From an uncultured Candidatus Saccharibacteria bacterium (GTDB lineage: Bacteria > Patescibacteriota > Doudnabacteria > UBA920 > 2-01-FULL-46-14), in assembly GCA_964396685.1 (NCBI GenBank), contig CAYNFS010000001.1, positions 16,638 to 80,637 on the forward strand: DNA of 64,000 nucleotides. The letters are read 5' to 3'. The notes under the pieces are model-generated. The model was given only the letters and a program-made list of their open reading frames with translations, made no database searches and was not told the DNA's origin. The translations under genes were made by a program, and so were the position numbers. Of the stretch, positions 1 through 35,833 are shown in pieces (positions within the stretch are counted from its first letter, which is position 1; every line of letters begins with the position of its first letter).

Positions 1-859
1 TTTGGTTGCGGAGTACCGTATAGTCGCCGATAACAGTTCCTCCGGCTTCGGCATCCTCTCTCCAGCCGTTTATCTGCTCGTCAGTGATTGGCAAAGGTAA
101 AGGATCAGGATCCGGTTCTCCAGGATAAGGAAAAGTTTCAGTGCCGGTAACTACGCAAGCGCTTTTTGTCGTATAATAGGCATTGCCGCTTATTGTACAA
201 TTGCTAATTGCATTGGCAAAGACACTTCCTGTGACCGTAAAATTATCCATAATCTGCCCGAACGCGCTGCCGCCAACAATGACTTGCGTGTCAATCTGGT
301 GGGCATGGGCGTGTCCGGAAACGGTCAGGCGATCAAAAATTCTCCCAAGCGCTCCTGCGGAAAAAGCATCGCCGGTGATTCTGGCTCCCGCTCCGCCGTC
401 TATCGGACCGTTGCTGTAGACATTGCCCAAGATGCTGGAATTATTGTCCATCACGAGTCCTCCGTCGCCGACCTGCACGCCGTAAAAAAAACTTGCCGAA
501 GTGGCGCTGATGCTAACAACGGCTCTGACCTCTTTTTGGGCCTTGGGCTGATTTTTCCCTGGAACATAACCAATTGCCGTAATTTCTTTTCGCGTGGGAT
601 TGATCGGAGCGACACTCACGTCAAACTCGCCTGTCGCGAGTACTGTGCCAGTCTCGCCTATGTAGTTTCCGGCAGTCTCGTTGAGCTTAAAGATTGCCTT
701 ATCTATGCCGGCATCAGCAAGCTGCAAGGCCTGTTCTTTGGCCAGCGCGTTTCTGGTGGCCGCGACGTTCTGAAAAACAAACCCCAAAAGGCCAATAGCC
801 AAAGCCAGGATCACCACCATGAAAATCAGCGAAATTATCAAAACCTGACCGCGTTGCAT
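1..859 (-). CDS. PilX-like / minor-pilin-like protein, C-terminally truncated by window start (N-terminus MQRGQVLIISLIFMVVILALAIGLLGF..., Gly-rich extracellular part)
   Basis: Checked codon by codon: the minus-strand frame starting at ATG 859-857 has no stop down to position 2. Single N-terminal TM helix resembles PilX_N. Sits directly downstream of two prepilin genes. Absent from the ORF track, presumably because it has no stop inside the window. Confidence 0.45.
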   Translation of the reverse strand, partial: MQRGQVLIISLIFMVVILALAIGLLGFVFQNVAATRNALAKEQALQLADAGIDKAIFKLNETAGNYIGETGTVLATGEFDVSVAPINPTRKEITAIGYVPGKNQPKAQKEVRAVVSISATSASFFYGVQVGDGGLVMDNNSSILGNVYSNGPIDGGAGARITGDAFSAGALGRIFDRLTVSGHAHAHQIDTQVIVGGSAFGQIMDNFTVTGSVFANAISNCTISGNAYYTTKSACVVTGTETFPYPGEPDPDPLPLPITDEQINGWREDAEAGGTVIGDYTVLRNQ

Positions 860-875
860 AAATTTTGCTCCTGAA

Positions 876-1427
876 TTATTTGTTGCGCAGGCTCGCCGAG
901 CCGGCAATTTGATCCGAAGCCGGGTATCTGCCAGTCTGCCGAACCTTAATTGTGTAATCCACTTTTCTTGCCAGTGATAAATCGGAATTGTCATAGGTAA
1001 AACTCAAGCTTGTCAAAGCCGGAGTTAGTTCGTGAAAGCGGGGCAGGCGGAGGCTTGAGGGATGAGGATCGACGATAAGAATCAGGCGATTTGCGGCATT
1101 TGGATCCTGCGCCACAATAACGTAATCAAAAATGCCGCTGATGATTTGTCCCTGCGAATTAATGGCCGGAATTTCCAAAACCAGCACTGTGGCACCAGTG
1201 GCATAGTTAACGCCGTCATAAACTCTTGAAGCCGCAAATTTTGTCGCCGCCCGGGTATACTCGTTGATGCGGTCCGCGGCCTCGCGGGTAGCATTATTGT
1301 TTAAAACTTTGCCCGACTCATTTTCGTAAAACTTGTTGTTGGACAAAAAAATCCCCACGCCTAAAGTGACTAATATCGCCAAAAGGAAAGTCACCACCAA
1401 AACTTCAGCCAATGTAAAGCCTCTCAT
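876..1427 (-). CDS. type IV prepilin / pseudopilin (N-terminal methylation motif GFTLAEVLVV)
   Basis: Class III signal-peptide motif G|FTL.E followed by a hydrophobic helix. In an operon with PilB/PilC. Confidence 0.7.
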   Translation of the reverse strand: MRGFTLAEVLVVTFLLAILVTLGVGIFLSNNKFYENESGKVLNNNATREAADRINEYTRAATKFAASRVYDGVNYATGATVLVLEIPAINSQGQIISGIFDYVIVAQDPNAANRLILIVDPHPSSLRLPRFHELTPALTSLSFTYDNSDLSLARKVDYTIKVRQTGRYPASDQIAGSASLRNK

Positions 1428-1840
1428 TGCTTATTTAATCCGTTTTTACTCATCAAAGTTTCAAGCGCCACGCTCTTGGCGGGTCCCACCGGATCAGTCC
1501 AGACCACAGTCACGGTCACTTTTTTGATGTCGCTTGCTCCTTCATAATCGGCAACTGTAAGCGCGCCGCTTGCGTTTTCGAGCTTGTTTAAGGCTGGATC
1601 AGAAAAAGAGCCGCTTGATGGGAGGGAATTAAAAGGCGTATTGCGCAGTTCCTCAATTTTTTTGGCGGCGATGTGGTAGGCCAAGTTTTGGTTTCTTGCG
1701 GCTTTGGTTAAAGGAATTGAGGAAAGAACCGAGCTGAAAATTATGATGGTGGCCATCAGCAGGGCCAAAGCAATGATCACCTCTATCAAAGTAAACCCCG
1801 TCACCACTCTAACATCATGTCGCGAGTGGCATTGGGTCAT
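1424..1840 (-). CDS. type IV prepilin-like protein (leader MTQCHSRHDVRVVTG|FTLIEV); ORF extends to 1960 but the likely start is ATG 1840
   Basis: GFTLIEV(I)IAL motif with Glu at +5. Starting at 1960 would give a 62-aa leader, atypical for prepilins. ATG 1840 gives a 15-aa leader. Confidence 0.6.
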   Translation of the reverse strand: MTQCHSRHDVRVVTGFTLIEVIIALALLMATIIIFSSVLSSIPLTKAARNQNLAYHIAAKKIEELRNTPFNSLPSSGSFSDPALNKLENASGALTVADYEGASDIKKVTVTVVWTDPVGPAKSVALETLMSKNGLNKQ

Positions 1841-1920
1841 TCTGCTTCGCGTTTCTTCAGACCATTCATCCACGGGTTTACACTCGTTATATTCTGGTGA
1901 CGGGGTAAACCCCAAAAGAA

Positions 1921-1948
1921 TTTTTGATTTTTGATTTTTGATTTTTGA
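1921..1948. repeat. heptanucleotide tandem repeat (tttttga)x4 between PilC stop and pilin start
   Basis: Four perfect 7-mer units read directly from the sequence. Lies 9 nt after the pilC stop, in the putative pilin promoter/5' region (or in the N-terminal extension if ATG 1960 is used). Confidence 0.9.
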
Positions 1949-1956
1949 TATTTTTA

Positions 1957-3171
1957 TCATAGGTTCTGTCCGATATTGTAAATCGGCAAAATGAGTCCCA
2001 CGGCCAAGACGCCAACTACGGCGCCGATCAAAATGACCAGGACAGGCTCAATTATGGATGAGAGATTTTTGACGGTGTCGTCAATTTCCGCCTCGTAAAA
2101 ATTGGAAACTTCCGCCAACACCTTTTCCATGGTTCCTGTCTCCTCGCCGACCTGAATCATCTGCGTTACCATCGGGGTGAAAAGTTTGGGATATTTCTCC
2201 AAAACCACCACCAAATCAACCCCGACTTTCACTTTTTCGGAAGCGTCGGCTATGGCTTGCCGGTAGTAAACATTGTTCATGGTGTCGCTGGTAATCTTCA
2301 AAGCCTCGACAATCGGCATGCCGGAACGAAGAAGGCCGCTAAAAATGATAGTAAACCTCGCCAGATTGAGTTTTTTCACGATTTTGCCGATGATCGGCAG
2401 ACTTAGATTGAGCTTATGAAAAAACGCGTGGCCTGATGCGGTTTTGTGCCAAAACCATATCCCGAATACCGACACTGCGATAACCGCCAAAAGGACCAGC
2501 GAATAGCTCGCGAATAAGTCCACAATCCTGATGATGATTTTGGTGAGCACCGGCAATTCGGCATCGAACTCCTGGAATGTTGAGGTTAGCTTCGGCAGAA
2601 CGAAGGAAAACATGATATAGCCGATGATGAGCAACGCAGCCATCACGACTGCCGGATAGGTGAGCGCCCCTTTGGTGCGGCGCAACAAATTGTAATCACG
2701 CCCTATCTGGGTGCCCAGATACTCCAAGGTTTTATCCAGCTCGCCGCTTTGTTCTCCAACCTTGACCATATTGACAAAGATGGCAGAAAAAATATTGGGA
2801 TATTCACCCAGGCTTTCAGACAAAGTTTTGCCGCCTTCCACATTGTGCGCCACCGCGCTGATGACATTCCGAAAATAGGGATTCGGCATTTGTCTCGTCA
2901 GCACAAGCAAAGCTTTGGATACCGGAAGGCCGGCTTTGATGGTTACGGCCAGGTTGTTTATAAAAGTCAGCTTCTCCAGCAATGAAACATGAGAAAAAAT
3001 TACGTTTAAGGCTCGACTTCTCAAGGAGCCCAGTCTTCGTTCCTCAATTGAAGTAGGAAGCAGGCCCTTGCTTCTTAGAGCCTGCCCTACTGCTTCCCGG
3101 GACGGCGCTTCTGCGATGTCCGAGACCATTTTGCCTTCCTGGTCCCGCGCTGTATATATAAATTCAGGCAT
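1957..3171 (-). CDS. pilC: type II secretion / type IV pilus platform protein PilC/GspF family
   Basis: Two T2SSF-like repeats and polytopic membrane segments. Adjacent to a GspE-type ATPase. Stop overlaps ATG 1960 (ATGA). Confidence 0.85.
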   Translation of the reverse strand: MPEFIYTARDQEGKMVSDIAEAPSREAVGQALRSKGLLPTSIEERRLGSLRSRALNVIFSHVSLLEKLTFINNLAVTIKAGLPVSKALLVLTRQMPNPYFRNVISAVAHNVEGGKTLSESLGEYPNIFSAIFVNMVKVGEQSGELDKTLEYLGTQIGRDYNLLRRTKGALTYPAVVMAALLIIGYIMFSFVLPKLTSTFQEFDAELPVLTKIIIRIVDLFASYSLVLLAVIAVSVFGIWFWHKTASGHAFFHKLNLSLPIIGKIVKKLNLARFTIIFSGLLRSGMPIVEALKITSDTMNNVYYRQAIADASEKVKVGVDLVVVLEKYPKLFTPMVTQMIQVGEETGTMEKVLAEVSNFYEAEIDDTVKNLSSIIEPVLVILIGAVVGVLAVGLILPIYNIGQNL

Positions 3172-3172
3172 T

Positions 3173-4915
3173 TTACTCCTTCGTCACCCTTAAGATTTCG
3201 GAGATTGTTGTAAGCCCCATATGGGCTTTGATGAATCCGTCCTGCCACATCAAAATCATGCTCTCCTCCACAGCCCGCTCTTGGATTTGACTGGTCGCCG
3301 CTCGAGACAGAATAAGTTTGGCAATGTTTTCCGTGATATCCAAGACTTCATAAATGCCGATCCGGCCCCGAAAACCCGTGCGGGAGCATTTTTCGCATCC
3401 TTTGCCGTGGTAAAAATCCACGTCTTTGAGATTTTTGGCTTTTTTGTCCAAAACCCCTTCCCGCTTCATCACTTCCATAAGGTGCAGGAGATCAAAATCC
3501 AAAGATAAACTCTGAACGGTCTTTTCGTCCAGACGCATCGGAGTTTTGCAGTCCTGACAGATTCTGCGCACCAGCCGTTGTCCCACAATGGTATGGATGG
3601 TTGAGGCAATTAAGTATGGTTCAACCCCAATGTCCAAAAGACGGGGAAGAGCCCCGGCCGCATTATTGGTGTGAAGCGTGGAAAGCACGATGTGGCCGGT
3701 CATAGCGGCGTGCACCGCTTCTTCGGCTGTTTCCAGATCGCGGATCTCCCCGATCATGATGATATTGGGATCCTGCCGCAAAAGAGCGCGCAGCCCCACC
3801 GCAAAAGTGAGGCTGATTCTGGGATTGACCTGCATTTGATTGACTCCCGGGACACGGTACTCAATCGGATCCTCAATGGTGCTGATATTTACCGATTTTG
3901 TATTTAATTTGCTCAAAATAGTATACAGTGTCGTGGATTTACCAGAACCGGTGGGGCCGGTAATAAGCGTCATGCCGTGAGGTCTGCTTAAATTTCGCTT
4001 GATGACCTCAAGAGAGGTCCTGGCAAAGCCCAAATCTTCAAAGGTCAAAGCTTTGGCCCCCTCATCCAGAAGCCGCATTACTACTTTTTCCCCGTCAAAC
4101 ACCGGGATGGTGGAAACGCGAAACGAGATATTGTATTCGTCAGTCTGAAGCTTAAAGCGGCCATCTTGGGGAAGACGATGCTCGTCAATTTTGAGATTGG
4201 ACAGAACCTTGATCCGGGCGATTAGTGCCGGCTGAATGACTTTCGGCAAGGTCATGACATCGTGCAAAATGCCGTCGATGCGGTAACGCACTGTCACTTC
4301 TTTTTCCTGCGGCTCAATGTGGATGTCCGAGGCCCCTTCAAAAATGGCGTACTCAAGCAGAGTATCCACCACCCGCACCACCGGAACTTCCTCCGCCATT
4401 TTTTTGAGCTCCTGACCTTCTTCCGCAGGCGCCGCTTTTTCCGCTTTTTTCGTGGTGAGGATTTTTTCAAACTCGGCCTTGAGGCTGGTATGATACTGGG
4501 AAAGCGCGTAGTCCATCCCGGTTTTGGTGGCCAAATACGGCTTGATTACAAAACCGGTTTTCTTTTTGACAAACTCCCTGGTTTGCAAATCCTCGGGATC
4601 AGTCATAGCCAAGTCAAGCTCGTTGCCCTTTTTGCGAAAAGCGATCACCTGATGACGGCGAGCTATTGGCTCGGGTATGATTTTTAAATCTTCCTGCGCA
4701 ATTTTTACCTTTGTCAGATCCGCAAACTCCACTTGCAGAAAATCGCTGACGAGCTTTGCGAGCTTGTCTTCCGGAATGATCTTGCGCACCACCAAATAGG
4801 AAGCCAGATTCTGATTTTTGCTCTCGGCCTCGGCTTTGAGTTTTTCAAAATCCTGCTCCGCGATAATTTTCTGCCCGACCAGAATTTTTTTCAGGTCAGT
4901 TGAAGCAAGCGCCAT
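3173..4915 (-). CDS. pilB: type IV pilus assembly ATPase PilB (GspE family, with N-terminal GSPII_E_N domain)
   Basis: Walker A GPTGSGKST, Asp and His boxes, C-terminal tetracysteine (CQDC...CEKC), N-terminal GspE_N-like region. Confidence 0.9.
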   Translation of the reverse strand: MALASTDLKKILVGQKIIAEQDFEKLKAEAESKNQNLASYLVVRKIIPEDKLAKLVSDFLQVEFADLTKVKIAQEDLKIIPEPIARRHQVIAFRKKGNELDLAMTDPEDLQTREFVKKKTGFVIKPYLATKTGMDYALSQYHTSLKAEFEKILTTKKAEKAAPAEEGQELKKMAEEVPVVRVVDTLLEYAIFEGASDIHIEPQEKEVTVRYRIDGILHDVMTLPKVIQPALIARIKVLSNLKIDEHRLPQDGRFKLQTDEYNISFRVSTIPVFDGEKVVMRLLDEGAKALTFEDLGFARTSLEVIKRNLSRPHGMTLITGPTGSGKSTTLYTILSKLNTKSVNISTIEDPIEYRVPGVNQMQVNPRISLTFAVGLRALLRQDPNIIMIGEIRDLETAEEAVHAAMTGHIVLSTLHTNNAAGALPRLLDIGVEPYLIASTIHTIVGQRLVRRICQDCKTPMRLDEKTVQSLSLDFDLLHLMEVMKREGVLDKKAKNLKDVDFYHGKGCEKCSRTGFRGRIGIYEVLDITENIAKLILSRAATSQIQERAVEESMILMWQDGFIKAHMGLTTISEILRVTKE

Positions 4916-7156
4916 TTATTTTTTGCACTTTGTTTCAAGCTCTTTCAAAAACTCCTGCCCTTCTTGCTGAAAGACAGGATTAAGCCTAATGGTTTCCAAA
5001 ACTTGAATGCGCGCGTTGTCGGTATCGCAAATCTCGCCATAAGCCACCGCAAGTTTGGCGTGAAGCTCGGCATTTTGCGGATCCAACTCTGCGGCTTTTT
5101 GGTAGCTTTCCGCCAATTTGAAATTATCCCCTGCCTCCAAATAGGCTCTGGCCAAATTGGTATAATCTCTGGAAGTAAGCTCGTATCCTAACTCTTTAAG
5201 TTTTGCCAGTTCCTCGGTAGCGATGTCCTCCCGTTTCGCGATAATCCCGGCCAGCAGGTAATTAAAATGCGACTCTTTGGGCTCGGGATTCTGGGCAATC
5301 GCCGATCTAAAGTACTCAAGGCCCTCTTCAAACTGCTTTTTGGAAAAAGCCGCTTGACCCAATTCAAAATAAATTTGGGGCCTCGTGGGAGAAAGCGCCA
5401 AGGCCTTTTGCCCCAAACTTAGCGCCTCGTCAATCATTTGTTGATTGCCCGTAAAGCGGTTTATCACGCTTACGAGATACAAATAATTTTTGACATCTTC
5501 CGGAAAATCTCTGATGCTTTTTCTAAGCTCGTCCATTACATATTGATAGACCTCGCTTTGCTCTTGAGAAGAAAGCTGTCCCGAGAACACAGCTTCGCTG
5601 GCATAATCCACCAGCCTCTGCCGGATTTCTTCATCCATATAAGTCCCGTAAGATAGGGCTTTTTTGAAAGTCGGCAAAACTTCCCGGTACTGCTTGACTT
5701 TTGCGGCCTTGATCCCTTGGGTCGTATAGTAGTTTGCAAAAGCGGGTCTCAAGTTTACGAAGAGAGCCGCAAAAAACATCAAGACGGCTAAGATCGTCGG
5801 CATCACAAAGCCCGGATGATAACCGGTGCGAGCTTTGGCCGGAGAAGATGACAGATATTGATTCGTCAAAAAAGCGATGTTGCCAAAAAGCAAAAATGAA
5901 AGCATGTAAGTTGCTTGTGTGTCAAACACAAAAAGATTCTGCAGGAAATAACCTGCCAGAAGCACGCCCAAAATTAAAATCATTCTAGGTTCCAAGTCCG
6001 GAGGCTTTTGAAGCCAAAGTTTAAATAAAATCCAGAAAGCCGCCGCAAACATGACAAGATACGCCAAAAAACCAATCAAACCGGCTTGTACCAGAACGTC
6101 AAAGACCACGTTGTGGGCGCGGTCAAACCAGATTTGACTGCCCTGATCTTTGAAAATTCGGGCTGGAAAATATTTGTTGAAGGCAATGTGATAATTTTCA
6201 TAGCCCCAGCCGAAAACCGGTCGGTCTTTGAACGCCTGGTAAGAAGCATTCCAGGTGTCCAAGCGCGACTGGGTCGTGATATCCCTTGGCGAAATGGTCG
6301 CAAGCCTGTAAAGCGTGTTGCTTCGGCTCACCCAGGAAGCGTCGCGGTTGAAATACAAAATGAAACCAAACGCCAAAAGCAAAGCCAAAAAGCCAAGCGA
6401 GAGGATTTTGGTCTTGCGTTTTTGGGATTTAAAGACATTGACTAAAAAATATAAACCGAAAGCCAGAGCCGCCGCCAGAATCGCCCCTCGAGTCTCTGTT
6501 TGGTACAGGATGTATAGTTCAAACCAAAACACAAACCAAAGATATACGCGCTGCGTTTTGGATTTTGCCTCCTGCAGGAGGTAGAGGGAAAGAAAAACTC
6601 CAAATAGCATCACTGCCGCAAAAAACGAAGCGTTGCCGATGGTGCCCACGATCCGGCCGCCGCGGAAAATGTTTGAAAGAATTGGCAAATCCAAAAGCTG
6701 GCTTAATCCCACCAAGGCGTTCAAAAAAGTCATGGTAATGGCGGCCAACAAATACCTGTGCCAATCGCGGCGAGTCTGAAATACCGCCGGCAAAATCGTA
6801 AAGTAAGCCGCGAAATGAAGTATGGTAACAAGCCCCTCGCCCCGCTCGATCGTCCCCCAGAAACTGTGGTTGAAATTCACGCCAAAAAGGCTTGCGACAA
6901 AAATTACACCGATATAAATCCATACTGCTTTTGTCAGCCAATTCCACTTAATTCTCAATTCCGGGTACTTTACGGCCAAAACCGCATAAACCACGACGGC
7001 CAGTTCCACCAAAAGCCTGAAATACAAAATTTTCGTGGTAATAAATGGAAACAAAAAAACGCTCCACACCAGAAGCGGCATGACGAGCAAGGCATACAGA
7101 ATTAATCTTAGGAGTTTATACCACTTATTTGTTTCCAGCGCGTCACTGTTTGCCAT
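4916..7156 (-). CDS. O-antigen ligase (Wzy_C) family polytopic membrane protein with C-terminal TPR domain; candidate O-oligosaccharyltransferase/ligase
   Basis: Wzy_C-type segment (ETRGAIL..., FGWGYENY...AHNVVFDVLVQAGLIGFL), more than 10 TM helices, C-terminal TPR repeats. Immediately upstream of pilB. Confidence 0.7.
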   Translation of the reverse strand: MANSDALETNKWYKLLRLILYALLVMPLLVWSVFLFPFITTKILYFRLLVELAVVVYAVLAVKYPELRIKWNWLTKAVWIYIGVIFVASLFGVNFNHSFWGTIERGEGLVTILHFAAYFTILPAVFQTRRDWHRYLLAAITMTFLNALVGLSQLLDLPILSNIFRGGRIVGTIGNASFFAAVMLFGVFLSLYLLQEAKSKTQRVYLWFVFWFELYILYQTETRGAILAAALAFGLYFLVNVFKSQKRKTKILSLGFLALLLAFGFILYFNRDASWVSRSNTLYRLATISPRDITTQSRLDTWNASYQAFKDRPVFGWGYENYHIAFNKYFPARIFKDQGSQIWFDRAHNVVFDVLVQAGLIGFLAYLVMFAAAFWILFKLWLQKPPDLEPRMILILGVLLAGYFLQNLFVFDTQATYMLSFLLFGNIAFLTNQYLSSSPAKARTGYHPGFVMPTILAVLMFFAALFVNLRPAFANYYTTQGIKAAKVKQYREVLPTFKKALSYGTYMDEEIRQRLVDYASEAVFSGQLSSQEQSEVYQYVMDELRKSIRDFPEDVKNYLYLVSVINRFTGNQQMIDEALSLGQKALALSPTRPQIYFELGQAAFSKKQFEEGLEYFRSAIAQNPEPKESHFNYLLAGIIAKREDIATEELAKLKELGYELTSRDYTNLARAYLEAGDNFKLAESYQKAAELDPQNAELHAKLAVAYGEICDTDNARIQVLETIRLNPVFQQEGQEFLKELETKCKK

Positions 7157-7197
7157 GATTTAATTTTACTAAATTTTCCCCAATCGGTCAATGCGCT

Positions 7198-7602
7198 TTA
7201 TTTCTTTCTCTTTCTGGCCAATTGGCGCACAGCCGGTTCGTCAAAGCCGAAATGATGGGCGACTTCATGCCAGACCGTGTCTTTGACCAGCTTTTTTATT
7301 CTTTCAGGATCCGAGCCTGACGCCATCTCCACGGGCTTTTGAAAAATCGTGATCTTGTCAGGTAAAACCATCGTATAAAAAGGCCCTCTTTTGGTCCGCG
7401 GCACCCCTTCATAAAGACCCAAAAGCAGGTCTCCTCTTAGCGTCCCACCCTTGCTCATCTGCTCTTTAGTAGGAAAATCCTCTATGACGATTCCCACATT
7501 ATCCATGAGCCTGCGCAACCGTTTGGGAATATCAAGCAGGGCATTTCTTACTAATTGTTCAAAGTCTTCCCGCGACATGGGTTTACTCACCCTCATCATC
7601 AA
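7198..7602 (-). CDS. zincin-like metallopeptidase family protein (HEVAHHFG motif)
   Basis: HExxH-type motif HEVAHHFGFDE in a protein of about 130 aa, typical of the Zincin_1 'possible metallopeptidase' family. Confidence 0.6.
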   Translation of the reverse strand: MMMRVSKPMSREDFEQLVRNALLDIPKRLRRLMDNVGIVIEDFPTKEQMSKGGTLRGDLLLGLYEGVPRTKRGPFYTMVLPDKITIFQKPVEMASGSDPERIKKLVKDTVWHEVAHHFGFDEPAVRQLARKRKK

Positions 7603-8479
7603 CCTGATTTTCTAACTGGTGCAGACTGTCTAGCATATGAAATACGGCGGCGTATTTTTCCAAATAACTTTTTAAGCGATATTTCTCTTCCAAAATCCTG
7701 TTCGTTTGAACCCACTCCTTGCCTATCCTGTCCCATTCCACGTCTTTGTGAAAAGCATGCGGCAAAGGATTTTGTCCATTTACACGAAACCTGCTGATTA
7801 GTGTCAGAGCAGCTCTGAAATTTGCTTTTTCAAGATCATCTACCTCTTGATTATTTGTCTCCCGAATTTTTGCCCATCCGCCCGCAACCCCGGCGCCCGC
7901 AAGCCCTCCAGCCATGGAGGCTAAAAACTTCCTGCGCGTAATGCCCTTTTCAGGGGCTAAATCCTCTTCCTTCGCCCTCTTTCTGGAAAGCTCGGGTGAG
8001 GCAAGAATGCTGGCTACACCGCTTCCGGCAAGACTGCCGTACAGGGCGGCACGCAGAATTTTTTCTTTTGCCTTTTTCGACCTTGTACTCTCAACTACAG
8101 GCGCTACGGCCTGAATACCCCGGATAAGCTCCGGCTTTAATTTCTCCACTACTTGTTCAACGGCAAGCTTCTTTCGGCCGAGTCTTTTTACAATTTCTTT
8201 TTTCAGCCCTTCTTCGAAGTTGCGAATTTCTTGCACTTCCTGTTCAGGCTTTAATACCCTCGGCTTAATATCAGGCTTTTTCGAAAATTTAATCTCGGCC
8301 TTGAGAACTTGCTCCGGCAACGATTCCGCCACCTTGCCGGAGACGCTGGCTGAACCCAAAATCGCTCCCGCCTTCAAAAATTCTGCAAGATGTGTTTTTT
8401 TCTCGTTGCTTTCCGCCTCTGGTTCTTTCGGCTGTCCTTCATATTCTTCTGGAATAAATCCCGGGGTTTCTTGGGTCAT
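7583..8479 (-). CDS. hypothetical protein, Lys/Glu-rich, with an internal twin-arginine-like motif TRRKFLASMAGGLAGAG
   Basis: Long ORF with a coherent low-complexity charged N-terminus. No recognisable domain. Confidence 0.35.
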   Translation of the reverse strand: MTQETPGFIPEEYEGQPKEPEAESNEKKTHLAEFLKAGAILGSASVSGKVAESLPEQVLKAEIKFSKKPDIKPRVLKPEQEVQEIRNFEEGLKKEIVKRLGRKKLAVEQVVEKLKPELIRGIQAVAPVVESTRSKKAKEKILRAALYGSLAGSGVASILASPELSRKRAKEEDLAPEKGITRRKFLASMAGGLAGAGVAGGWAKIRETNNQEVDDLEKANFRAALTLISRFRVNGQNPLPHAFHKDVEWDRIGKEWVQTNRILEEKYRLKSYLEKYAAVFHMLDSLHQLENQVDDEGE

Positions 8480-8566: not shown

Positions 8567-9946
8567 ATGCTGCTCAACAAGCTCAAAAAAATCCTGCTTT
8601 TGGCGGGCGACATCCTCGTCCTTTACGGCTCGCTTTATCTCACTCTTTTGATTCGCTACCAGCAAATCCCGACTAGCCGTGTTTGGAATTTGCTTTTTTG
8701 GCCCTTCTCCATACTTTTTGGTTTCTGGCTCATAATTTTTTACATCAACGGGCTGTATGATATTTCCGCGAGCAAAAACGATGTGGCTTTTTACAATAAA
8801 CTTCTGCGCAACACGCTCATCAATTATGCTCTGGCAGCCGCCTATTTTTATCTTCTCACTGACAAATTTTTTAATATCAAACCGCAGACCGTATTTTTTA
8901 TTTTCATGGCCACAAACCTCGCTATCCTTTCCCTCTGGCGGTTTTGGTACAACAGCTTGGTGCAAAACCCAAATCTCCTGCGCAATATCTTGGTAATTGG
9001 GATGAAAGACGAAGCAAGAGAGCTGGTCGAGGAAATCCAGCGCAAACCCCAGCTTGGGTACAAAATTGCGGCCATCATCCACAACAGTTATAGAGGCCAA
9101 AACGATTTTCCCGGAGTTAAGATGTTTGATTCCAAAGCCGATATCAAACAAATCCTGCGTGAGCACGATATCACCACCGTGCTTACCGCTTTAGATCCCA
9201 GAAGCAACCCGACGCTTGTTAAACACCTTTACGAGAGCCTAGCGCTGAAATTGCAATTTTTTGACCTGCCGACTTTTTACGAAAAATTAACCGGCAAAAT
9301 TCCGGTAACCACCATCGGGCACATCTGGTTTCTGGAAAACTTGGCCGAGAGCGAAAAAGCGATCTATGAACTGGGCAAACGGATTTTTGACATGGTTTTT
9401 TCTACCGTCATCCTCGTCTTATCTCTGCCTTTTATCCCTCTCATCGCTTTGCTGATCAAATTAGACACTAAAGGGCCGGTATTCTTCCGGCAAATCCGCG
9501 TGGGGCTTTTGGGCAAGCCTTTTGAGGCCGTAAAGTTTCGCAGTATGATAGAGGGCGCTGAAAAAAACGGAGAGGCGCAGTGGGCCTCAAAAAACGATCC
9601 TCGCGTCACCAAAATCGGCCGATTTTTGCGCAAGACCAGAATTGACGAAATCCCCCAGCTTTTGAATGTTTTCCGCGGCGAAATGTCGCTAATTGGCCCG
9701 AGACCCGAGCGCCCCGAATTTGTCGCAAAGCTTCTGGAGCTAATTCCTTTTTACAATGAGCGGCATTTGGTCAAACCGGGGCTTACCGGCTGGGCGCAAA
9801 TCAGCTTCCAGTATGGCTCATCCACGGGAGATGCTTTGAAAAAACTCCAATACGATCTTTTTTACATCAAAAACCGCTCGCTTCCCCTGGACATCGGGAT
9901 TGTTCTCAAAACTATTAACATCATCCTTTCAGGAAAAGGGCAGTAA
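8567..9946 (+). CDS. polyprenyl-phosphate sugar phosphotransferase (WbaP/bacterial sugar transferase family), initiating enzyme
   Basis: C-terminal bacterial sugar transferase domain (DEIPQL, GEMSLIGPRPERPEF, KPGLTGWAQI) and N-terminal TM helices. ORF track start 8390 overlaps the upstream gene; ATG 8567 (MLLNKLKK...) or 8486 is more plausible. Confidence 0.85.
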   Translation: MLLNKLKKILLLAGDILVLYGSLYLTLLIRYQQIPTSRVWNLLFWPFSILFGFWLIIFYINGLYDISASKNDVAFYNKLLRNTLINYALAAAYFYLLTDKFFNIKPQTVFFIFMATNLAILSLWRFWYNSLVQNPNLLRNILVIGMKDEARELVEEIQRKPQLGYKIAAIIHNSYRGQNDFPGVKMFDSKADIKQILREHDITTVLTALDPRSNPTLVKHLYESLALKLQFFDLPTFYEKLTGKIPVTTIGHIWFLENLAESEKAIYELGKRIFDMVFSTVILVLSLPFIPLIALLIKLDTKGPVFFRQIRVGLLGKPFEAVKFRSMIEGAEKNGEAQWASKNDPRVTKIGRFLRKTRIDEIPQLLNVFRGEMSLIGPRPERPEFVAKLLELIPFYNERHLVKPGLTGWAQISFQYGSSTGDALKKLQYDLFYIKNRSLPLDIGIVLKTINIILSGKGQ

Positions 9947-10016: not shown

Positions 10017-10949
10017 TTATGAAAAGGCACTAATCTTATATTTATCCATTACCTGACGCACTAGCTCCAAAGTCAATTCATCGACAATCTGGGCGAGCTT
10101 GTCCGTGAGATTATTCTTCCAATCTCCAACGATGCCCTTGCGGTAATGACTGCCGATTGACTGCTCACCCGGGCGCCGGGGTCTGCCGCCCGAATCAACC
10201 TCTGTCAAACGCTCGAACGAGGCTTCGTTAATCATGTTTTGAATAATCTCGTCACTGTATTTGACTCCCAAATAATCCAGCAGACTCTTTACCGCCTTTC
10301 TGGGATGCTGGTGCAATGCTTCATAAGTCAGACAGTGTATCCCTCCCTCATAAGCCAATAACGATCGAAATTCGGGCTGAATTGTGCCGCGACAATACTC
10401 CTCCACAAACCCGTCTCTAATCGGCTCCTCGGGCGATTTGCGTCCCTTTCGGATGAGATTGAAATGCCAGGAAACCACGACGTCTTTCGGATCGCGGAAA
10501 ATGCAAATCTTTTTTATGTTCGGATAAAAACTATCAATGAAGTCAAGGTGAAAAACATACAGAGGCGTGTCTTCCCCGACCAGCAGTTTGTTTCCCCTCA
10601 TCTTTTCGCACAACTCTTCGTACCTTGCCAAAAAATTTCTATAAACTTCTTCTCGAGGCAGCCGGTCTTTGAGGGGAACCAAGTCAGCAAAGATGCCGTG
10701 CACTTGCGTCAGAAAATTTTCCATCGGCCTGGTAAAAGATTTATCAACGTCGGGTTCAAGACTGGCAAGCGTGTTAAATAAGTGGACCTCGCCGATTCGT
10801 TTCATATCGGACTCTGGATTTTCCGAACGAAAAGGAAGCGCAGGAAAACAGGCAATCTCGGGATGAGAGTTCAAAAGGGCTGAAACCCAGTGGGTTCCGC
10901 TGCGCTGCATGCCGACAATGAGGAAATCTGGTTTGTGCTTTCGCTTCAT
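10017..10949 (-). CDS. sulfotransferase family protein (PAPS-dependent)
   Basis: 5'-PSB-like loop at the N-terminus (FLIVGMQRSGTHWV) and overall Sulfotransfer_1/3-like layout. PAPS synthesis and PAP recycling genes are in the same cluster. Confidence 0.7.
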   Translation of the reverse strand: MKRKHKPDFLIVGMQRSGTHWVSALLNSHPEIACFPALPFRSENPESDMKRIGEVHLFNTLASLEPDVDKSFTRPMENFLTQVHGIFADLVPLKDRLPREEVYRNFLARYEELCEKMRGNKLLVGEDTPLYVFHLDFIDSFYPNIKKICIFRDPKDVVVSWHFNLIRKGRKSPEEPIRDGFVEEYCRGTIQPEFRSLLAYEGGIHCLTYEALHQHPRKAVKSLLDYLGVKYSDEIIQNMINEASFERLTEVDSGGRPRRPGEQSIGSHYRKGIVGDWKNNLTDKLAQIVDELTLELVRQVMDKYKISAFS

Positions 10950-10954
10950 AAAAT

Positions 10955-12019
10955 TTACTCAATCGTGATTACTCGCCCCTTTTCGCGTGATAAATGGGCA
11001 GCCTGAATAACCTTCATAGTATCGAGTCCCCGCTGAAACGATATAGGGCTGTCTTCTGCCTTGATTTTCCCTTCCAAAATCTCCCGGATATGCAAAATCT
11101 CTTCGTAGAAATCATCCGGTCTTGTCTTCTCAATTCTGACTTCGCTCGTAGGCTGTCCCACTCGCCCGAAACGCAACAAATCCCCTTTGTCCCAGCCGTT
11201 TATTAAAATCTCCGCAAAACCCTCTTCACACTGTATTCGCAGCCATTTTTTGTCTGGCTTTGCAATCACGTCCTGGGCGACGCGACCGACAAATCCATCC
11301 TCCGTCGTCAAATTCAAAAAACAAGATTGGTCGTAATCAACCTTGTCGTTTCTCACCATCTGCATCGCCGCAGAGACTTGCCTGACCTTCCCGAATCCCA
11401 AAAAGTGAGCAAAATGCTGCCAAAGATTGGCGGCGTGCGAGTGTTCACCGGAAGCGCCGCCACCTTTCTTCCAAAATCCCAAATAAGTATCATGCGGTCC
11501 GGCAAGCCAAGGGTGAACCGCAAAAATCCCCTGCCAATTCTGGCGAAACTCCACATCCAACGCCTGCGGTCTGCCAAACGGCCTATCCGACAGAACCTCC
11601 TCGGCTTTTTTGACCACCCTGCTCACCGCATGATCATATCCCACAACCACAGCGGTTCGACTCTTTTTAAGTTTTTTTTGAAACTCCGCTACGCCTTCAA
11701 GCGAAGGCGGGCACAAGGGTTTTTCCAGCAACAAAACTTTGGGGTCTTCGTCGAGAACGAAATCTGCCAAGGACATACGAACGTGCGGCGGAGTTCCCAG
11801 CATAATCACTTCAAAACCCCCTTTTGGCTCTTCGCCGAATTTATAAAGCTCGATACTTTCGTCCCAACTACCGTAGCGATTGGGATAAATTTCCTCTCGC
11901 ATCCGCCGCAATGCGCTCTTGTCGGGGTCCACCACCGTAACACCCCACCCCTCCCGTCTCGCCGCTTGCGCCAAATGATTGCCGATCGACCCAGCGCCGT
12001 AGATTTTTGCCTTAATCAT
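10955..12019 (-). CDS. Gfo/Idh/MocA family NAD(P)-dependent oxidoreductase
   Basis: N-terminal Rossmann motif IYGAGSIGNHLA and GFOR-type fold length. Confidence 0.8.
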   Translation of the reverse strand: MIKAKIYGAGSIGNHLAQAARREGWGVTVVDPDKSALRRMREEIYPNRYGSWDESIELYKFGEEPKGGFEVIMLGTPPHVRMSLADFVLDEDPKVLLLEKPLCPPSLEGVAEFQKKLKKSRTAVVVGYDHAVSRVVKKAEEVLSDRPFGRPQALDVEFRQNWQGIFAVHPWLAGPHDTYLGFWKKGGGASGEHSHAANLWQHFAHFLGFGKVRQVSAAMQMVRNDKVDYDQSCFLNLTTEDGFVGRVAQDVIAKPDKKWLRIQCEEGFAEILINGWDKGDLLRFGRVGQPTSEVRIEKTRPDDFYEEILHIREILEGKIKAEDSPISFQRGLDTMKVIQAAHLSREKGRVITIE

Positions 12020-12660
12020 AGACTTTTTATTTTCGCCAAAGTTAATTGCTTGAATCCGTCAATAACCAAGTCTGCTTTGCCCAGGCGGTCCCGGCCGGTG
12101 GTAAAAGTTACAGCGATGCATTTCATCCCTGCCCTTTTAGCCGCTTTGACACCGACCTCGCTGTCTTCCACCACAACACATTCTTCCGGACTTATTTTTA
12201 ACTGCGAGGCGCTTTTCAAATATATGCCGGGGTCAGGCTTCTTTTTTTCAATATCTTCCTGCGTCAAGACTAAATCAAAGTATTTCTCCAAATCAAAACG
12301 CTTGAGAATTATTGCAGTCGAGCGGCGGTCGGAACTGGTAGCCAAACCCAGACGCTCACCCTCCCCGTGGAGCTTTTCAAGCAATTCGGCGGCATCAGAA
12401 AATATCCCGAAAGGCACTTCGTCCAAGATCCGGTAATAAGCCTCTCTTTTTTCGCGGATAATCTCTGCCACGTCGCCGTTAAATCCGTATTTTTTCAGAA
12501 AAAATTCAACAGCCGGGATTTCGTGCTTTCCCAAACGCTCTGGATCGTCTTGCAAAATGACATCGAAACGGTTTTTGAATACCTCCTGATAGGCCTGAAA
12601 CTTCAGCGGTTCGGTATCTACCAATACGCCATCCATATCAAAAATTACTGCCCGAATCAT
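12016..12660 (-). CDS. HAD-IA family hydrolase / sugar-phosphate phosphatase (candidate nonulosonate-9-phosphate phosphatase)
   Basis: Motif I VIFDMDGVLVDTE, motif II and motif IV (VVVEDSEVG). Overlaps the stop of the NeuB-like gene. Confidence 0.8.
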   Translation of the reverse strand: MIRAVIFDMDGVLVDTEPLKFQAYQEVFKNRFDVILQDDPERLGKHEIPAVEFFLKKYGFNGDVAEIIREKREAYYRILDEVPFGIFSDAAELLEKLHGEGERLGLATSSDRRSTAIILKRFDLEKYFDLVLTQEDIEKKKPDPGIYLKSASQLKISPEECVVVEDSEVGVKAAKRAGMKCIAVTFTTGRDRLGKADLVIDGFKQLTLAKIKSL

Positions 12661-14234
12661 AATAGTTCGATGGTTAGTTTTTGTTTTTCATCCAAGTCAT
12701 CAAACTGATGCCGGCCCCAGTTGATAAGCGACGTCTTTCGTTCTGCCAGTGGTTCTTTGTTAATATCCTTATCTGCATAAAACGAATCATTGTGCCAATG
12801 GGTTGTGGAGATTTCTTCGAAAATCGCTCCCTCGGGCGCGAAAAAACCGTGCCACACGCCACGGGGAATAAGCAGAGTATCGCCTGGATAAACCATGCGC
12901 GTGCGCCCTTCGATCTCCGCGTGCAAAACGCCGCTTAACACCTGAAACGTCTCTTCTTTTTTCTTATGATAATGAATGGGGTGAGCCTGCCCGGGAAGCA
13001 TGACGATGATTTTCTTGCAGTACTCACGATTAATGCATTCGATCAAAAACGCCCCGACTTCAAAAAATTTCTCCAGACCGTAATGATGCGACAATTCCAC
13101 GTTAGAGTCGTAATTTACGAAGATACGAGCGCTGTTGAGCATGCCCTTAACCTCGCGAATTGCCCGATAGACAGTATCCTTTTTGGAAAAATTGCGGGAC
13201 TGCAAACCTGCGGAGAGCGGCTCTAGCGCGGCGTAGTCGCGATCGACCACCAAATCTTCTTGCCATTCCCCGCTTTTCAGTTGGCCGGGCTGCAAAGGTA
13301 GGGCGAAGAAAACGTCGGGACGCAAAATGGCGGCCCCTTGTCTTAAAAACCGGCTCGCGTAAACCCCCCGCTGGAACTGACGCAAACTCTTCTCCTCTTC
13401 CACGGAATCGGAAAATGTTGACGTCTCTGGCCGGCCAGCCATGCTTACGGCCTGCTGATAGGCGACGAGCCAGTTTCTTATTTGTTCGGGGCGCGAGGAA
13501 TAGGCGTTGAGTTTTACGCTCTCCAACTCTACTCCAATGTGTCTTTCAAAAATTCTGGCTCCTTTGGAGAAAGCAATCTTTATCGCGTCCACATTGTTTG
13601 GATCCTCATGGGTTGAAAATCCTACGGTTAACTGCGGATAACGGTTTTTCAAAACGGCAATGCGCTCCAAATTCAATTTGTCGCTTGGTGTGGGATAAAT
13701 CGAAACGCAGTGCTCTAAAGCGAACTCCGTGCCCCGGTGTTCAAAAAAACTGACAATTTTATCAACCTCGTTGATTGACAGCCCCGCCGTGGAGCAAATA
13801 ACCGGTTTCCCAGTCTCCGCTATTTTCTCCAAAAGCGGCCAATCAGTTGCGCCACTGCTTGCCACCTTAATCACTTCTATTCCAAGTTTTTCCAAAAGTT
13901 CCACCGACTGTTCGTCGGAAGGTGTTGCCATAGTGACCAGCCCCGCCTCCTTGATGTCTCTGACCAAAATCGCGTAGTGCTCGGGACGAAGTCTGTTGGC
14001 CAAAAAATATGAAATATATTGATATTCGGAATTTCGCCTGTGGTACGGATGAATCAAGGCCTCAAGATCTCGGAACTGAAACTTAATCGCTGCTCTGACC
14101 CCGGCTTCCTTCGCCACCCATGCAAACTCGCGCACAATCAAACGCCCCAATTCCAAACTCCCCTTGTGGTTGTTGGCCATGTCAAAAATAAACAGGCCGT
14201 CAAACTCAAATGATTTTTTCTTTAGAGGAAACAT
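12657..14234 (-). CDS. NeuB-family nonulosonic acid (sialic-acid-like) synthase with SAF domain and extra C-terminal cupin domain
   Basis: NeuB TIM-barrel signature (FDMANNHKGSLELG...AIKFQ), an SAF-like segment, and a C-terminal cupin (PIHYHKKKEETFQVLSG...GDTLLIPRGVWHGF). At 525 aa it is much longer than canonical NeuB. Confidence 0.75.
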   Translation of the reverse strand: MFPLKKKSFEFDGLFIFDMANNHKGSLELGRLIVREFAWVAKEAGVRAAIKFQFRDLEALIHPYHRRNSEYQYISYFLANRLRPEHYAILVRDIKEAGLVTMATPSDEQSVELLEKLGIEVIKVASSGATDWPLLEKIAETGKPVICSTAGLSINEVDKIVSFFEHRGTEFALEHCVSIYPTPSDKLNLERIAVLKNRYPQLTVGFSTHEDPNNVDAIKIAFSKGARIFERHIGVELESVKLNAYSSRPEQIRNWLVAYQQAVSMAGRPETSTFSDSVEEEKSLRQFQRGVYASRFLRQGAAILRPDVFFALPLQPGQLKSGEWQEDLVVDRDYAALEPLSAGLQSRNFSKKDTVYRAIREVKGMLNSARIFVNYDSNVELSHHYGLEKFFEVGAFLIECINREYCKKIIVMLPGQAHPIHYHKKKEETFQVLSGVLHAEIEGRTRMVYPGDTLLIPRGVWHGFFAPEGAIFEEISTTHWHNDSFYADKDINKEPLAERKTSLINWGRHQFDDLDEKQKLTIELL

Positions 14235-14275
14235 AGCTCATCTTATTAAATCAACTTCTCATTCTAACAATATGT

Positions 14276-15025
14276 TCAACGCAAGTCAAGCCTGCGCTTA
14301 AGCAATATTTCAGCCAACAGAAAATCGATCTCGTTGTCAAGATTTACTGAATCCTCTGACTTCATATAAAAATAGGCTATTTTCTCCCCTGAGGTTGATT
14401 TCAGTTTGCGGATAGTCCTAAGCCACATCACATCCATTGCTCCCGTGTGAATATAAACTTCGGGGAGCGCTTGTCTCGACGAGTTGTAAGGTTCCTTCAT
14501 CTTCGTAAAATCCCGAGGCAAAAACGGCTGGAGCCATTGGCCGTCCTTCGATATCTTCCACATTTTGTAAGGATGCTTCGGCGACTCAATAATCGGGCGA
14601 ACAGAATGAGCACCCGGAGTGTCAATGAGTTTCTGAATTCCTTCATCAATATGCGCTGCCGTGCGCAGGGGCGAAGTCGGCGGCAGGCGCAAAACGATGT
14701 CCGGTTCGTAATTCTCCTTTGCTTTGAGCCAATCCAAAGCATGCCGTAAAAACTCCTCTCCCAAAGAAAGATCCCCGGAAATATCTGCCGGACGCAGAAA
14801 AGGAACCTCGGCTCCGTAACGCCTCGCTACGTCGGCAATTTCCTCGCTGTCCGTGGAAACAATCGTGCGCGTTAAGAGTTTCGATTTTTTTGCCTCCTCA
14901 ATGGTCCATGCAATAAGCGGTTTCCCCAAAAGCGGTTTGATGTTCTTTTTGGGTATAGATTTTGACCCTTCTCTGGCACCAATGACCGCCAGGGCTTCAT
15001 ACGACTTGTTGGCTGACTTTGGCAT
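14276..15025 (-). CDS. acylneuraminate (CMP-nonulosonate) cytidylyltransferase family protein
   Basis: CTP_transf_3 N-terminal motif (LAVIGAREGSKSIPKKNIKPLLGKPLIAW). Confidence 0.8.
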   Translation of the reverse strand: MPKSANKSYEALAVIGAREGSKSIPKKNIKPLLGKPLIAWTIEEAKKSKLLTRTIVSTDSEEIADVARRYGAEVPFLRPADISGDLSLGEEFLRHALDWLKAKENYEPDIVLRLPPTSPLRTAAHIDEGIQKLIDTPGAHSVRPIIESPKHPYKMWKISKDGQWLQPFLPRDFTKMKEPYNSSRQALPEVYIHTGAMDVMWLRTIRKLKSTSGEKIAYFYMKSEDSVNLDNEIDFLLAEILLKRRLDLR

Positions 15026-15034
15026 ATCGGCTCC

Positions 15035-15793
15035 TTATTCGTGCATTAACAACTTAATTCTGCGAAAACGATAAGCGAAAAAATTTCTCACAGTTTGCCA
15101 TTCAACTACTTCCCAGAACAAATAATTCAGCAATCTTAATAGACGGGAAGCACTCGGATGACATTGTATCAAAACTCCCCCGTTTAAAACCTCCCCTTGA
15201 TACTGCGTATCGGCATGGCGCTCAAGTGAATAGCCGTACTTTCCGGCCAGGGCCTTGCGAGCCCAATTTCGCTGGATGTGCCGGTGTCCTTCGATATAAA
15301 CAAACCTGACGCTTTTTAAATAACAAAGGTAATGCCAAACGGCATCATTGAACCCGTGACTTGGATCGTCCTCTCCCTTTCTGGCTTGTCCGCCGTCGAC
15401 TACCACCAAATCATACTCTCGCAACGGGGGAAGCATTCGGTAATCTTTGAGAATTTGAAACCGGCCACTAAACTCTTTGAGGTTTTCCGCGAGCTTTTCC
15501 GCAAAATACTGGTCATGCTCATATACGTCCAGTTTGGCTTGCGAATGTTTGAGCACCAAGTAGCTGATGGTCCCCAAACCTCCGCCGAGTTCCAAGACAC
15601 GCTCTGGGTGCTGCTTGCGGCAAAGCTCTAATAAAACGTGCAAAGTTGCGGGTTTGGCGATATGTTCGGAACGCGGAAACTGTCTAAACCGCTCGTATAC
15701 CGCGATGGCTTCTGGGTCAAAGTCAATCAACTTAATTTTTCGAATTGGCATGGGCAAACTCCCTAATGGTATTGATAATTTCCGCCTCCGCAC
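15035..15793 (-). CDS. class I SAM-dependent methyltransferase
   Basis: Motif I VLELGGGLGTISY. Start probably at an internal Met. Confidence 0.55.
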   Translation of the reverse strand: MRRRKLSIPLGSLPMPIRKIKLIDFDPEAIAVYERFRQFPRSEHIAKPATLHVLLELCRKQHPERVLELGGGLGTISYLVLKHSQAKLDVYEHDQYFAEKLAENLKEFSGRFQILKDYRMLPPLREYDLVVVDGGQARKGEDDPSHGFNDAVWHYLCYLKSVRFVYIEGHRHIQRNWARKALAGKYGYSLERHADTQYQGEVLNGGVLIQCHPSASRLLRLLNYLFWEVVEWQTVRNFFAYRFRRIKLLMHE

Positions 15794-17857: not shown

Positions 17858-17885
17858 ACCTACCCCATTGCTGTCCAGTTGGACT

Positions 17886-18695: not shown

Positions 18696-18724
18696 CTATA
18701 TCTTCTCCTTAATTAAGTTTAGAA

Positions 18725-24793: not shown

Positions 24794-24795
24794 AA

Positions 24796-25482: not shown

Positions 25483-25486
25483 ATTC

Positions 25487-30183: not shown

Positions 30184-30194
30184 ATTCGAATCTC

Positions 30195-31481: not shown

Positions 31482-31491
31482 GACTATATGA

Positions 31492-35380: not shown

Positions 35381-35396
35381 AATAATTTTTCTTTAA

Positions 35397-35810: not shown

Positions 35811-35833
35811 ATTCTTTCTTCTTAATGTTAATT

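Follow-up and report, generated by a model that had tools for sequence, protein, structure and literature searches.

Proteins that join a Wzy_C domain to tetratricopeptide repeats (TPR) are already known among the protein O-oligosaccharyltransferases (O-OTases). WsfB from Paenibacillus alvei, and WsaB together with WsaA from Geobacillus stearothermophilus, are the O-OTases of surface-layer (S-layer) proteins encoded in slg clusters; WsfB, like PglL, has a C-terminal TPR motif, whereas the gene of WsaB, which has no such motif, follows that of a small TPR protein (PMC2943079). PglL and PglS transfer glycans en bloc from undecaprenyl pyrophosphate (Und-PP) to internal sites of their substrates, pilins among them (PMC3643930, PMC9829042, PMC12800693). 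A model of PglS shows 13 helices with a periplasmic domain at the C-terminus (PMC12800693), and this domain, which is missing from the small, pilin C-terminus-specific TfpM, is proposed to recognise internal sequons (PMC9829042). TfpO (PilO) and TfpM are enzymes of 420-470 residues without a C-terminal domain, are encoded directly downstream of the major pilin gene, and modify a Ser or Thr at the pilin C-terminus (PMC9829042). Here we describe a Wzy_C-TPR gene in a stretch of 64,000 nucleotides (the window hereafter; contig CAYNFS010000001.1, positions 16,638 to 80,637) from an uncultured Candidatus Saccharibacteria bacterium placed in Doudnabacteria by GTDB. The gene (4916..7156, minus strand) encodes a membrane protein of 746 residues whose public annotation label is already 'O-antigen ligase family protein', and which is most likely a protein O-OTase working like PglL, PglS and WsfB.

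The Wzy_C domain (PF04932) is matched at residues 209-367 with 84.3 bits against a Pfam cut-off of 31.7 and is matched by all 63 relatives as well, and several TPR families of Pfam match residues 570-710. Based on AlphaFold2 (AF2) models and the positive-inside rule, with 19 Lys and Arg residues in the short inner loops versus 5 in the short outer loops, the membrane domain (residues 1-472; 5741..7156, minus strand) has 13 predicted transmembrane (TM) helices and an N-terminus inside the cell. Its fold is polytopic and WaaL-like. The catalytic loop (residues 270-349, including R298, G316, G318, D345 and H348; 6110..6349, minus strand) and the 260-residue TPR solenoid (residues 490-746; 4919..5689, minus strand), which is modelled as all-helical repeats, are both predicted to lie outside the membrane.

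Full-length profile searches of the PDB and Foldseek searches with the full model were swamped by TPR proteins, and the membrane domain alone was used instead. Its profile matched WaaL (7tpg, E 1e-10), the only solved relative found by structure and sequence comparison, while a single-sequence phmmer search of the PDB with the membrane domain gave no matches. The top Foldseek matches of the C-terminal domain are the TPRs of OGT. Residues R223, R298 and H348 align with R191, R265 and H313 of WaaL from Cupriavidus metallidurans and are invariant in the 63 relatives, as are E104, R105, R168, G316, G318, D345 and D412. Escherichia coli WaaL requires the same Arg/Arg/His set (R215/R288/H338 in EcWaaL), and Neisseria PglL has it conserved as well (R224/R298/H349 in NmPglL) (PMC3643930). 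The catalytic loop is the most conserved segment of the family: when the PilB-linked clade described below is compared with the subtilase-linked one, the identity is 59% in this loop versus 30% in the TPR domain. G316 and G318, listed as specific to PglL (PMC3643930), were dropped as a discriminator since the C. metallidurans WaaL has aligned glycines too.

An earlier note on this DNA had described the Wzy_C gene as followed by pilB, pilC, two prepilins and a PilX-like gene, and this order is confirmed, with all of these genes on the minus strand. The TAA stop of the Wzy_C-TPR gene abuts the ATG of pilB (AAAAAATAAATGGCG), leaving a gap of 0 nt. The pilB gene (3173..4915; 580 residues; T2SSE 424 bits, MshEN, NCBIfam type_IV_pilB 584 bits) encodes the extension ATPase of type IV pili (T4P) and is separated by 1 nt from pilC (1957..3171; 404 residues; T2SSF 195 bits, NCBIfam PilC/GspF), which encodes the T4P platform protein. 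An overlap of 4 nt joins pilC to prepilin 1 (1424..1960; motif GFTLIEV; N_methyl, GspI, PilV and ComGF matches), and another of 4 nt joins prepilin 1 to prepilin 2 (876..1427; 183 residues; motif MRGFTLAEV; N_methyl and IV_pilin_GFxxxE matches). After a gap of 16 nt follows the gene of a PilX/GspK-like minor pilin (1..859, start at 859; NCBIfam GspK, E 2e-4), which is truncated by the left edge of the window; its orthologues have 447-453 residues and are present in all PilB-linked loci. The N_methyl/GFxxxE motifs bear out the call of prepilins in both cases, with the refinement that both are of the minor-pilin type (GspI/PilV/ComG-like). The true start of prepilin 1 is probably near 1840, about 40 codons later than the open reading frame (ORF) suggests, which would give 138 residues as in relatives, where the orthologues have 125-136.

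Gene contexts were compared for six homologues and 80 species-level loci from a genome scan, using our own ORF calls and phmmer. The order of Wzy_C-TPR gene, pilB, pilC and minor pilins recurs in 10 other species-level genomes, with protein identities of 37-73%. In a neighbour-joining tree, the PilB-linked members and the window protein form a single clade, most members of which are titled Doudnabacteria. Down to about 37% identity, this clade keeps the Wzy_C-TPR gene, pilB, pilC and three minor pilins, followed, where the calls extend, by pilM, pilN and a pilO-like gene. In the closest relative, L001, whose enzyme is 73% identical, a gene for a 168-residue major-pilin-like protein (4457..4963 of that locus, plus strand; GFSLIELLVV..., N_methyl E 6e-9) lies 39 nt upstream of the Wzy_C-TPR gene. 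The C-terminus of this pilin has a low-complexity stretch, SSPTAGAGTG...GASGPNGSP, rich in Ser, Pro, Thr, Ala and Gly and of the kind that PglL targets. At the corresponding place, the window has a Zincin_1 gene and an unassigned gene of 298 codons.

The whole family belongs to Patescibacteria, has a constant length of about 740 residues, and comprises 4,825 cluster representatives (50% identity) at E<=1e-30 with the membrane-domain profile. Its commonest neighbour is a divergently oriented WbaP-like priming transferase: of the 70 loci with enough flank, 34 have it next to the Wzy_C-TPR gene and 41 have it no more than 10 kb away. The commonest downstream partner is a secreted protein with Peptidase_S8 and an FG-GAP beta-propeller (subtilase) of about 740 residues, found in 20 of 68 loci (L024, L026, L027, L033, L034, L036, L038, L040, L042, L044, L046, L049, L051, L052, L054, L057, L062, L069, L072 and L086); in 18 of these 20, the two genes overlap by up to 10 nt or lie at most 51 nt apart. 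In three loci of the clade that is sister to the PilB-linked one, a secreted HExxH/TIG protein takes the same slot. No homologues of the subtilase/FG-GAP or TIG partners were found in the window or in the PilB-clade loci.

A third recurrent context involves a giant Ser/Thr-rich protein. In the window, the C-terminal 1,060 of 1,292 residues of such a protein, P0121, are encoded at 60818..64000 (minus strand), the gene running off the right edge. P0121 is secreted and S-layer-like, with a Sec signal peptide, three N-terminal repeats of about 57 residues, an S+T content of 23.5% versus 9.4% in the enzymes of the window, 2 Cys and an acidic composition; no Pfam domain was found in it, and the length of its family, about 1,200-1,300 residues, is conserved across Patescibacteria. 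The order giant protein, small TPR protein, Wzy_C-TPR paralogue (sometimes a tandem pair) is found in at least 10 scanned loci, plus L097 (L032, L039, L045, L047, L058, L060, L065, L080, L089, L093 and L097). The earlier note's suggestion that the giant protein is a candidate acceptor thus gains strong comparative support, since a paralogue directly follows its homologue in at least 10 other genomes. Beyond the paralogue lies a convergent family 4 glycosyltransferase (GT4), and most loci also have a UDP-sugar dehydrogenase/epimerase and further GT4s, often with PMT_2. In L096, PMT_2 genes occupy the place of the paralogue after the giant protein, without a Wzy_C-TPR gene. Tandem duplicates of the Wzy_C-TPR gene, mostly linked to the giant protein, occur in L047, L050, L055, L056, L058 and L089.

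The giant module of the window consists of the giant protein, its conserved partner, the small TPR protein (60002..60691, minus strand; 229 residues; TPR Pfam matches), which is membrane-anchored by an N-terminal TM helix, the convergent GT4 gene (58727..59929, plus strand; Pfam), with orthologues that, in relatives, come after the paralogue, dehydrogenase/epimerase genes, and a polytopic glycosyltransferase of the PMT_2 (GT-C) type (51987..53681, minus strand; Pfam PMT_2/PMT; about 10 TM helices), a candidate alternative enzyme for the giant protein. There is no second Wzy_C-TPR copy in the window, and the slot that the paralogue takes in relatives is an empty convergent gap of 72 nt with a hairpin (59930..60001). 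The window protein belongs to the primer-linked lineage and is 31-36% identical to the giant-linked paralogues. Three genomes of the PilB clade (MFEF01, PFAJ01 and JAHFJD01) have both paralogues, which is consistent with a division of labour. Two tandem genes, 57092..57883 and 57873..58712 (both minus strand), encode UDP-glucose/GDP-mannose dehydrogenase-like proteins of 263 and 279 residues that have partial N-terminal and central domains and no C-terminal domain. Since a form of 286 residues is also found in L097, this may be a genuine short variant and not a split gene.

On its other side, the Wzy_C-TPR gene neighbours a glycan-biosynthesis locus. A divergent gene (8567..9946, plus strand) encodes a WbaP-like polyprenyl-phosphate phosphoglycosyltransferase (Bac_transf 224 bits, CoA_binding_3); its ORF opens at 8390, and M60 is the likely start, giving 459 residues and matching the orthologues. 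The glycan-biosynthesis genes identified by Pfam scans extend over 10017..48293 (minus strand) and encode a sulfotransferase, a fusion for the synthesis of 3'-phosphoadenosine 5'-phosphosulfate (PAPS), a CysQ-like phosphatase, two NeuB proteins, two CMP-sugar synthetases, carbamoyl-, methyl- and acetyltransferases, aminotransferases, KpsC/S-like proteins and many GT2 and GT4 enzymes. The locus includes an ATP-binding cassette (ABC) exporter with 6 TM helices and an ATPase (38204..40009, minus strand; ABC_membrane and ABC_tran), a candidate flippase for a lipid-linked glycan. According to a TM census of the ORFs, the only polytopic membrane proteins of the window are the priming transferase, the ABC exporter, PMT_2 and the Wzy_C-TPR protein, and no Wzx or Wzy-like polytopic protein was found. 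This set agrees with an ABC-exporter route that has a ligase or OTase as its last step, like that of the slg cluster of Geobacillus (PMC2943079). The glycan locus of about 50 kb that the earlier note had named as the probable source of the lipid-linked oligosaccharide is verified next to the WbaP-like primer, and it may supply the donor.

Several genes of the locus are of interest in themselves. A fusion protein of 918 residues (21279..24035, minus strand) combines a pyruvate-kinase barrel, PUA_2, ATP sulfurylase and adenosine 5'-phosphosulfate (APS) kinase; it adjoins a CysQ-like gene of the inositol-monophosphatase family (20479..21282, minus strand), and the sulfotransferase gene (10017..10949, minus strand) lies in the same locus. 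Together, these genes suggest that a surface glycan is sulfated and that the PAPS synthase has an unusual domain arrangement. NeuB-type nonulosonic-acid synthases are encoded at 12657..14234 and 28452..29567, one of them fused to a cupin, and CMP-sugar cytidylyltransferases at 14276..15025 and 31492..32274 (all minus strand). The locus may thus produce two distinct acids of the nonulosonic or ulosonic type. The KpsC/KpsS-like Capsule_synth proteins are encoded at 25487..26998 and 36774..38201. Two small plus-strand ORFs that overlap (54296..54586 and 54579..54923) break the minus-strand glycan locus and, judged by eye from their translations, look like an MNT nucleotidyltransferase/HEPN toxin-antitoxin pair.

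From the fold, topology, conserved residues, architecture, synteny and phylogenetic distribution, we infer the catalytic activity, donor, flippase and acceptor as follows. The divergent WbaP-like phosphoglycosyltransferase would prime undecaprenyl phosphate, and glycosyltransferases and modifying enzymes encoded in the neighbouring locus would then assemble the glycan in the cytoplasm. Once the ABC exporter had flipped this glycan across the membrane, the Wzy_C domain would move it en bloc onto a hydroxyl group of a protein outside the cytoplasm. As in WaaL and PglS, to judge by analogy, the pyrophosphate would be held by R223 and R298, with H348 as the base, and the outward C-terminal TPR solenoid beside the catalytic loop would recruit the acceptor. 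Overall, the acceptor is probably a protein, because of the ligase core, the outward TPR domain shared with O-OTases, the neighbouring primer, the repeated coupling to genes of secreted proteins, and a host phylum in which lipid A is not known.

Since the gene heads a pilB-pilC-minor-pilin operon, type IV pilins are the most likely acceptors in this lineage. This is supported by an arrangement that is conserved and co-directional and, in the window, free of gaps, by the separate giant-linked paralogue of relatives, by the PMT_2 of the giant module in the window, and by the major-pilin-like gene of L001. That pilins are among the acceptors, possibly not as the sole ones, appears nearly as probable as the opposite. 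Several observations weigh against it. The T4P linkage is a minority state, as pilB comes directly next in 8 of 65 loci, or in 10 when distances of up to 10 kb are allowed, and the sister clade keeps the priming transferase and has a tightly coupled secreted subtilase downstream instead of pilB; therefore, the adjacency to pilB could be historical. The immediate neighbours, pilB and pilC, encode proteins that cannot be glycan acceptors, and the pilins of the operon are minor pilins with only moderate Ser/Thr content. No major pilin gene was found by motif scan anywhere in the 64-kb window, and of the 11 related PilB-linked contexts only L001 has such a gene, the other 10 having none within 10 kb. 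Because the giant module of the window has no Wzy_C-TPR gene of its own, the window enzyme may serve the giant protein instead or as well. Pilin glycosylation in Patescibacteria is given as predictions only in PMC11623550.

The signatures of known enzyme classes also bear on the assignment. The PglL_A motif (PF15864) is absent from the 18 Pfam matches of the protein at E<=1, nor is it one of the 25 families that the 63 relatives match most frequently, where even the rarest family is matched by 6 relatives; the best NCBIfam match, TIGR03097, is far under its cut-off. These results count against the assignment too. In favour of an O-OTase, the Wzy_C_2 model (PF11846), the family to which the C-terminal domain of PglS-like enzymes belongs, weakly matches the TPR region in 9 of the 63 relatives, although it did not match the window protein. 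The earlier note had called the protein a candidate pilin O-OTase, a reading that would be refuted if it grouped with WaaL-type ligases or Wzy polymerases and had no PglL signature. A Wzy_C enzyme of the ligase/OTase type with a 13th helix and an external TPR domain, and a T4P link conserved in one clade, stand; PglL_A and an adjacent major pilin do not, and pilins as the acceptor are a plausible reading. The proximity to WaaL without a PglL motif is not decisive, because PilO/TfpO are likewise without PglL motifs (PMC3643930) and, according to a 2025 paper, there is no solved O-OTase structure (PMC12800693).

The enzyme could also be a protein O-OTase whose targets are giant S-layer-like or other secreted surface proteins and not pilins, comparable to WsfB/WsaB, with the pilB adjacency being an inherited gene order in one clade. 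The conserved module of giant protein, small TPR protein, paralogue and GT4, the signal peptide and S-layer-like composition of P0121, the restriction of the T4P linkage to few loci, and the fact that the sole Wzy_C-TPR gene of the window is the pilB-linked one while the paralogue slot is empty, all speak for this possibility, as does a locus content that mirrors the slg clusters in having a WbaP-like primer, an ABC exporter, glycosyltransferases, a Wzy_C OTase and a TPR protein (PMC2943079). However, PMT_2 gives the giant module its own candidate enzyme, as in L096, the window protein is of the primer-linked and not the giant-linked lineage, and its gene directly abuts pilB (0 nt) and is 53 kb away from the giant gene. 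Targets without pilins are judged rather improbable. It is less probable still, and in our judgement unlikely, that the protein is a WaaL-like ligase that transfers an Und-PP glycan onto a non-protein acceptor, such as a glycolipid anchor or cell-wall polymer of the monoderm envelope, with the TPR domain as a scaffold. The relationship to WaaL, the missing PglL_A motif, the priming transferase as commonest partner, which is no protein substrate, and the KpsC/KpsS-like genes, which hint at lipid-anchored polymers, are all in keeping with such a ligase. WaaL itself, however, has about 400 residues, 12 helices and no C-terminal domain, and the tight coupling with genes of secreted proteins is repeated. 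To our knowledge, glycopolymers are attached to peptidoglycan by LCP enzymes and not by Wzy_C proteins, and Patescibacteria are not known to make lipid A. The TPR is a protein-binding module that, in the Wzy_C family, is common to known O-OTases (PMC2943079).

The name of the Pfam domain, and a Polysacc_synt (Wzx-like) gene near the loci of some relatives, might point to a Wzy-type polymerase of the repeat units of a surface polysaccharide. PF04932, however, is a marker of ligases and OTases and not of genuine Wzy polymerases (PMC3643930, Text S1). The His/Arg ligase set is invariant, and the catalytic loop keeps its 59% identity across clades with differing glycan genes, unlike the serotype-specific Wzy. 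The window also has no Wzx or Wzz-like polytopic ORF, and export is apparently of the ABC type; a polymerase is therefore regarded as very unlikely. Hardly credible is a mainly structural T4P assembly factor with a TPR domain like that of PilF/PilW and a catalytically irrelevant Wzy_C domain. It would account for the operon position and for the weak match that NCBIfam PilW gives in the TPR region, at 33 bits with the cut-off at 154, but the catalytic residues are invariant across thousands of relatives and most members are not near T4P genes. Moreover, PilF and PilW are known to act on outer-membrane secretins, which monoderms lack.

Between the priming transferase and the Wzy_C-TPR gene, a Zincin_1 metallopeptidase-like gene (7198..7602, minus strand; Pfam Zincin_1 85 bits) is not found at the corresponding position in relatives. 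The minus-strand unit opens with a gene (7583..8479, minus strand) for a protein of 298 residues that has no Pfam match and no assigned function, and for which no homologue was found among 93 related loci (L001-L093). Two segments of this protein are rich in Gly and Ala and resemble each other, and a twin-arginine-like motif, RRKFL, precedes the second. In the gap of 41 nt before the start of the Wzy_C-TPR gene there is a sigma-70-like promoter match, TTGACC-17-TAAAAT (7163..7191, minus strand). It is a consensus match only, and the totals of the promoter and terminator scans of the region were not above the expectation from shuffled sequence.

Patescibacteria are ultrasmall episymbionts that use type IV pili and a surface layer to find and hold their hosts. 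Glycosylation in Saccharibacteria has been called unexplored in a paper on their pili (PMC11623550), and the very large Wzy_C-TPR family provides a concrete and testable enzyme candidate for glycosylation in Patescibacteria. Its three recurrent contexts, the pilus operon, the giant Ser/Thr-rich surface protein and the secreted subtilase, point to candidate acceptors. A literature search found no description of an O-OTase, or of a Wzy_C + TPR protein, in the Candidate Phyla Radiation (CPR), nor of the phylum-wide family, its two paralogue lineages, its three contexts or the placement at the head of pilBC. The PilB-linked lineage could even be a fifth class of pilin O-OTase after TfpO, PglL, PglS and TfpM and the first in monoderm CPR, transcribed at the head of the pilus assembly genes, in which the external TPR solenoid captures pilins leaving the membrane and an unusual sulfated, carbamoylated glycan with nonulosonic acid is transferred, while a sister paralogue glycosylates the giant protein. 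Patescibacteria would thereby gain their first defined protein-glycosylation systems. As a whole, this scheme is doubtful but possible. O-OTases are the working enzymes of bioconjugate vaccines (PMC12800693), and a large, well-predicted TPR domain for acceptor binding could widen the set of usable sequons. If the enzyme were instead a ligase with a non-protein acceptor, its reaction would be the last one in the making of envelope glycopolymers, in a phylum with no known lipopolysaccharide.

Compared with known systems, the window protein departs from WaaL, which has 12 TM helices and takes lipid A-core as its acceptor. The entries for the C. metallidurans enzyme (PDB 7TPG/7TPJ) contain 403-413 residues and no TPR domain, so that the length, the number of helices and the extra domain do not match the architecture of a lipid A-core ligase, and no lipid A genes were found in the 64-kb window. 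In the eukaryotic glycosyltransferases TMTC1-4 and OGT, too, a catalytic domain is joined to TPRs, which select protein substrates; their catalytic folds and donors are unrelated, and the likeness is one of analogy only. As in TfpO/PilO and TfpM, a Wzy_C enzyme is linked to T4P genes and the catalytic His is kept. However, there is no cognate major pilin upstream in the window, the 746-residue protein with its 260-residue TPR domain is not of their small type, and the linked pilin of L001 ends in Lys.

With PglL from Neisseria and PglS from Acinetobacter baylyi, the protein shares a Wzy_C domain with the Arg/Arg/His set, and 13 TM helices followed by an extracytoplasmic C-terminal domain are predicted in the models here as well. 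This domain consists of about 260 residues of canonical TPRs, versus about 110-170 residues in PglL/PglS, and, unlike these enzymes, the protein has no PglL_A/PglL_B signature and comes from a monoderm CPR host. Its gene lies upstream of pilB, whereas pglS adjoins a pilin gene and pglL is unlinked. The likeness to WsfB/WsaB is one of architecture and locus content. It includes a monoderm host, and a Wzy_C enzyme with a TPR domain that is fused (WsfB) or present as a separate small protein (WsaA) (PMC2943079). The window likewise has, in one locus, a WbaP-like primer (WsaP/WsfP in the slg clusters), an ABC exporter (Wzm/Wzt in G. stearothermophilus) and many glycosyltransferases (PMC2943079), and, at the locus edge, the gene of a putative surface-layer protein, whose S-layer nature is here suggested by its composition only. 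Unlike WsfB/WsaB, the window enzyme heads a T4P operon, and its glycan genes point to nonulosonic acid, sulfate and carbamoyl groups, in contrast to the rhamnan or galactose-based glycans of the slg clusters.

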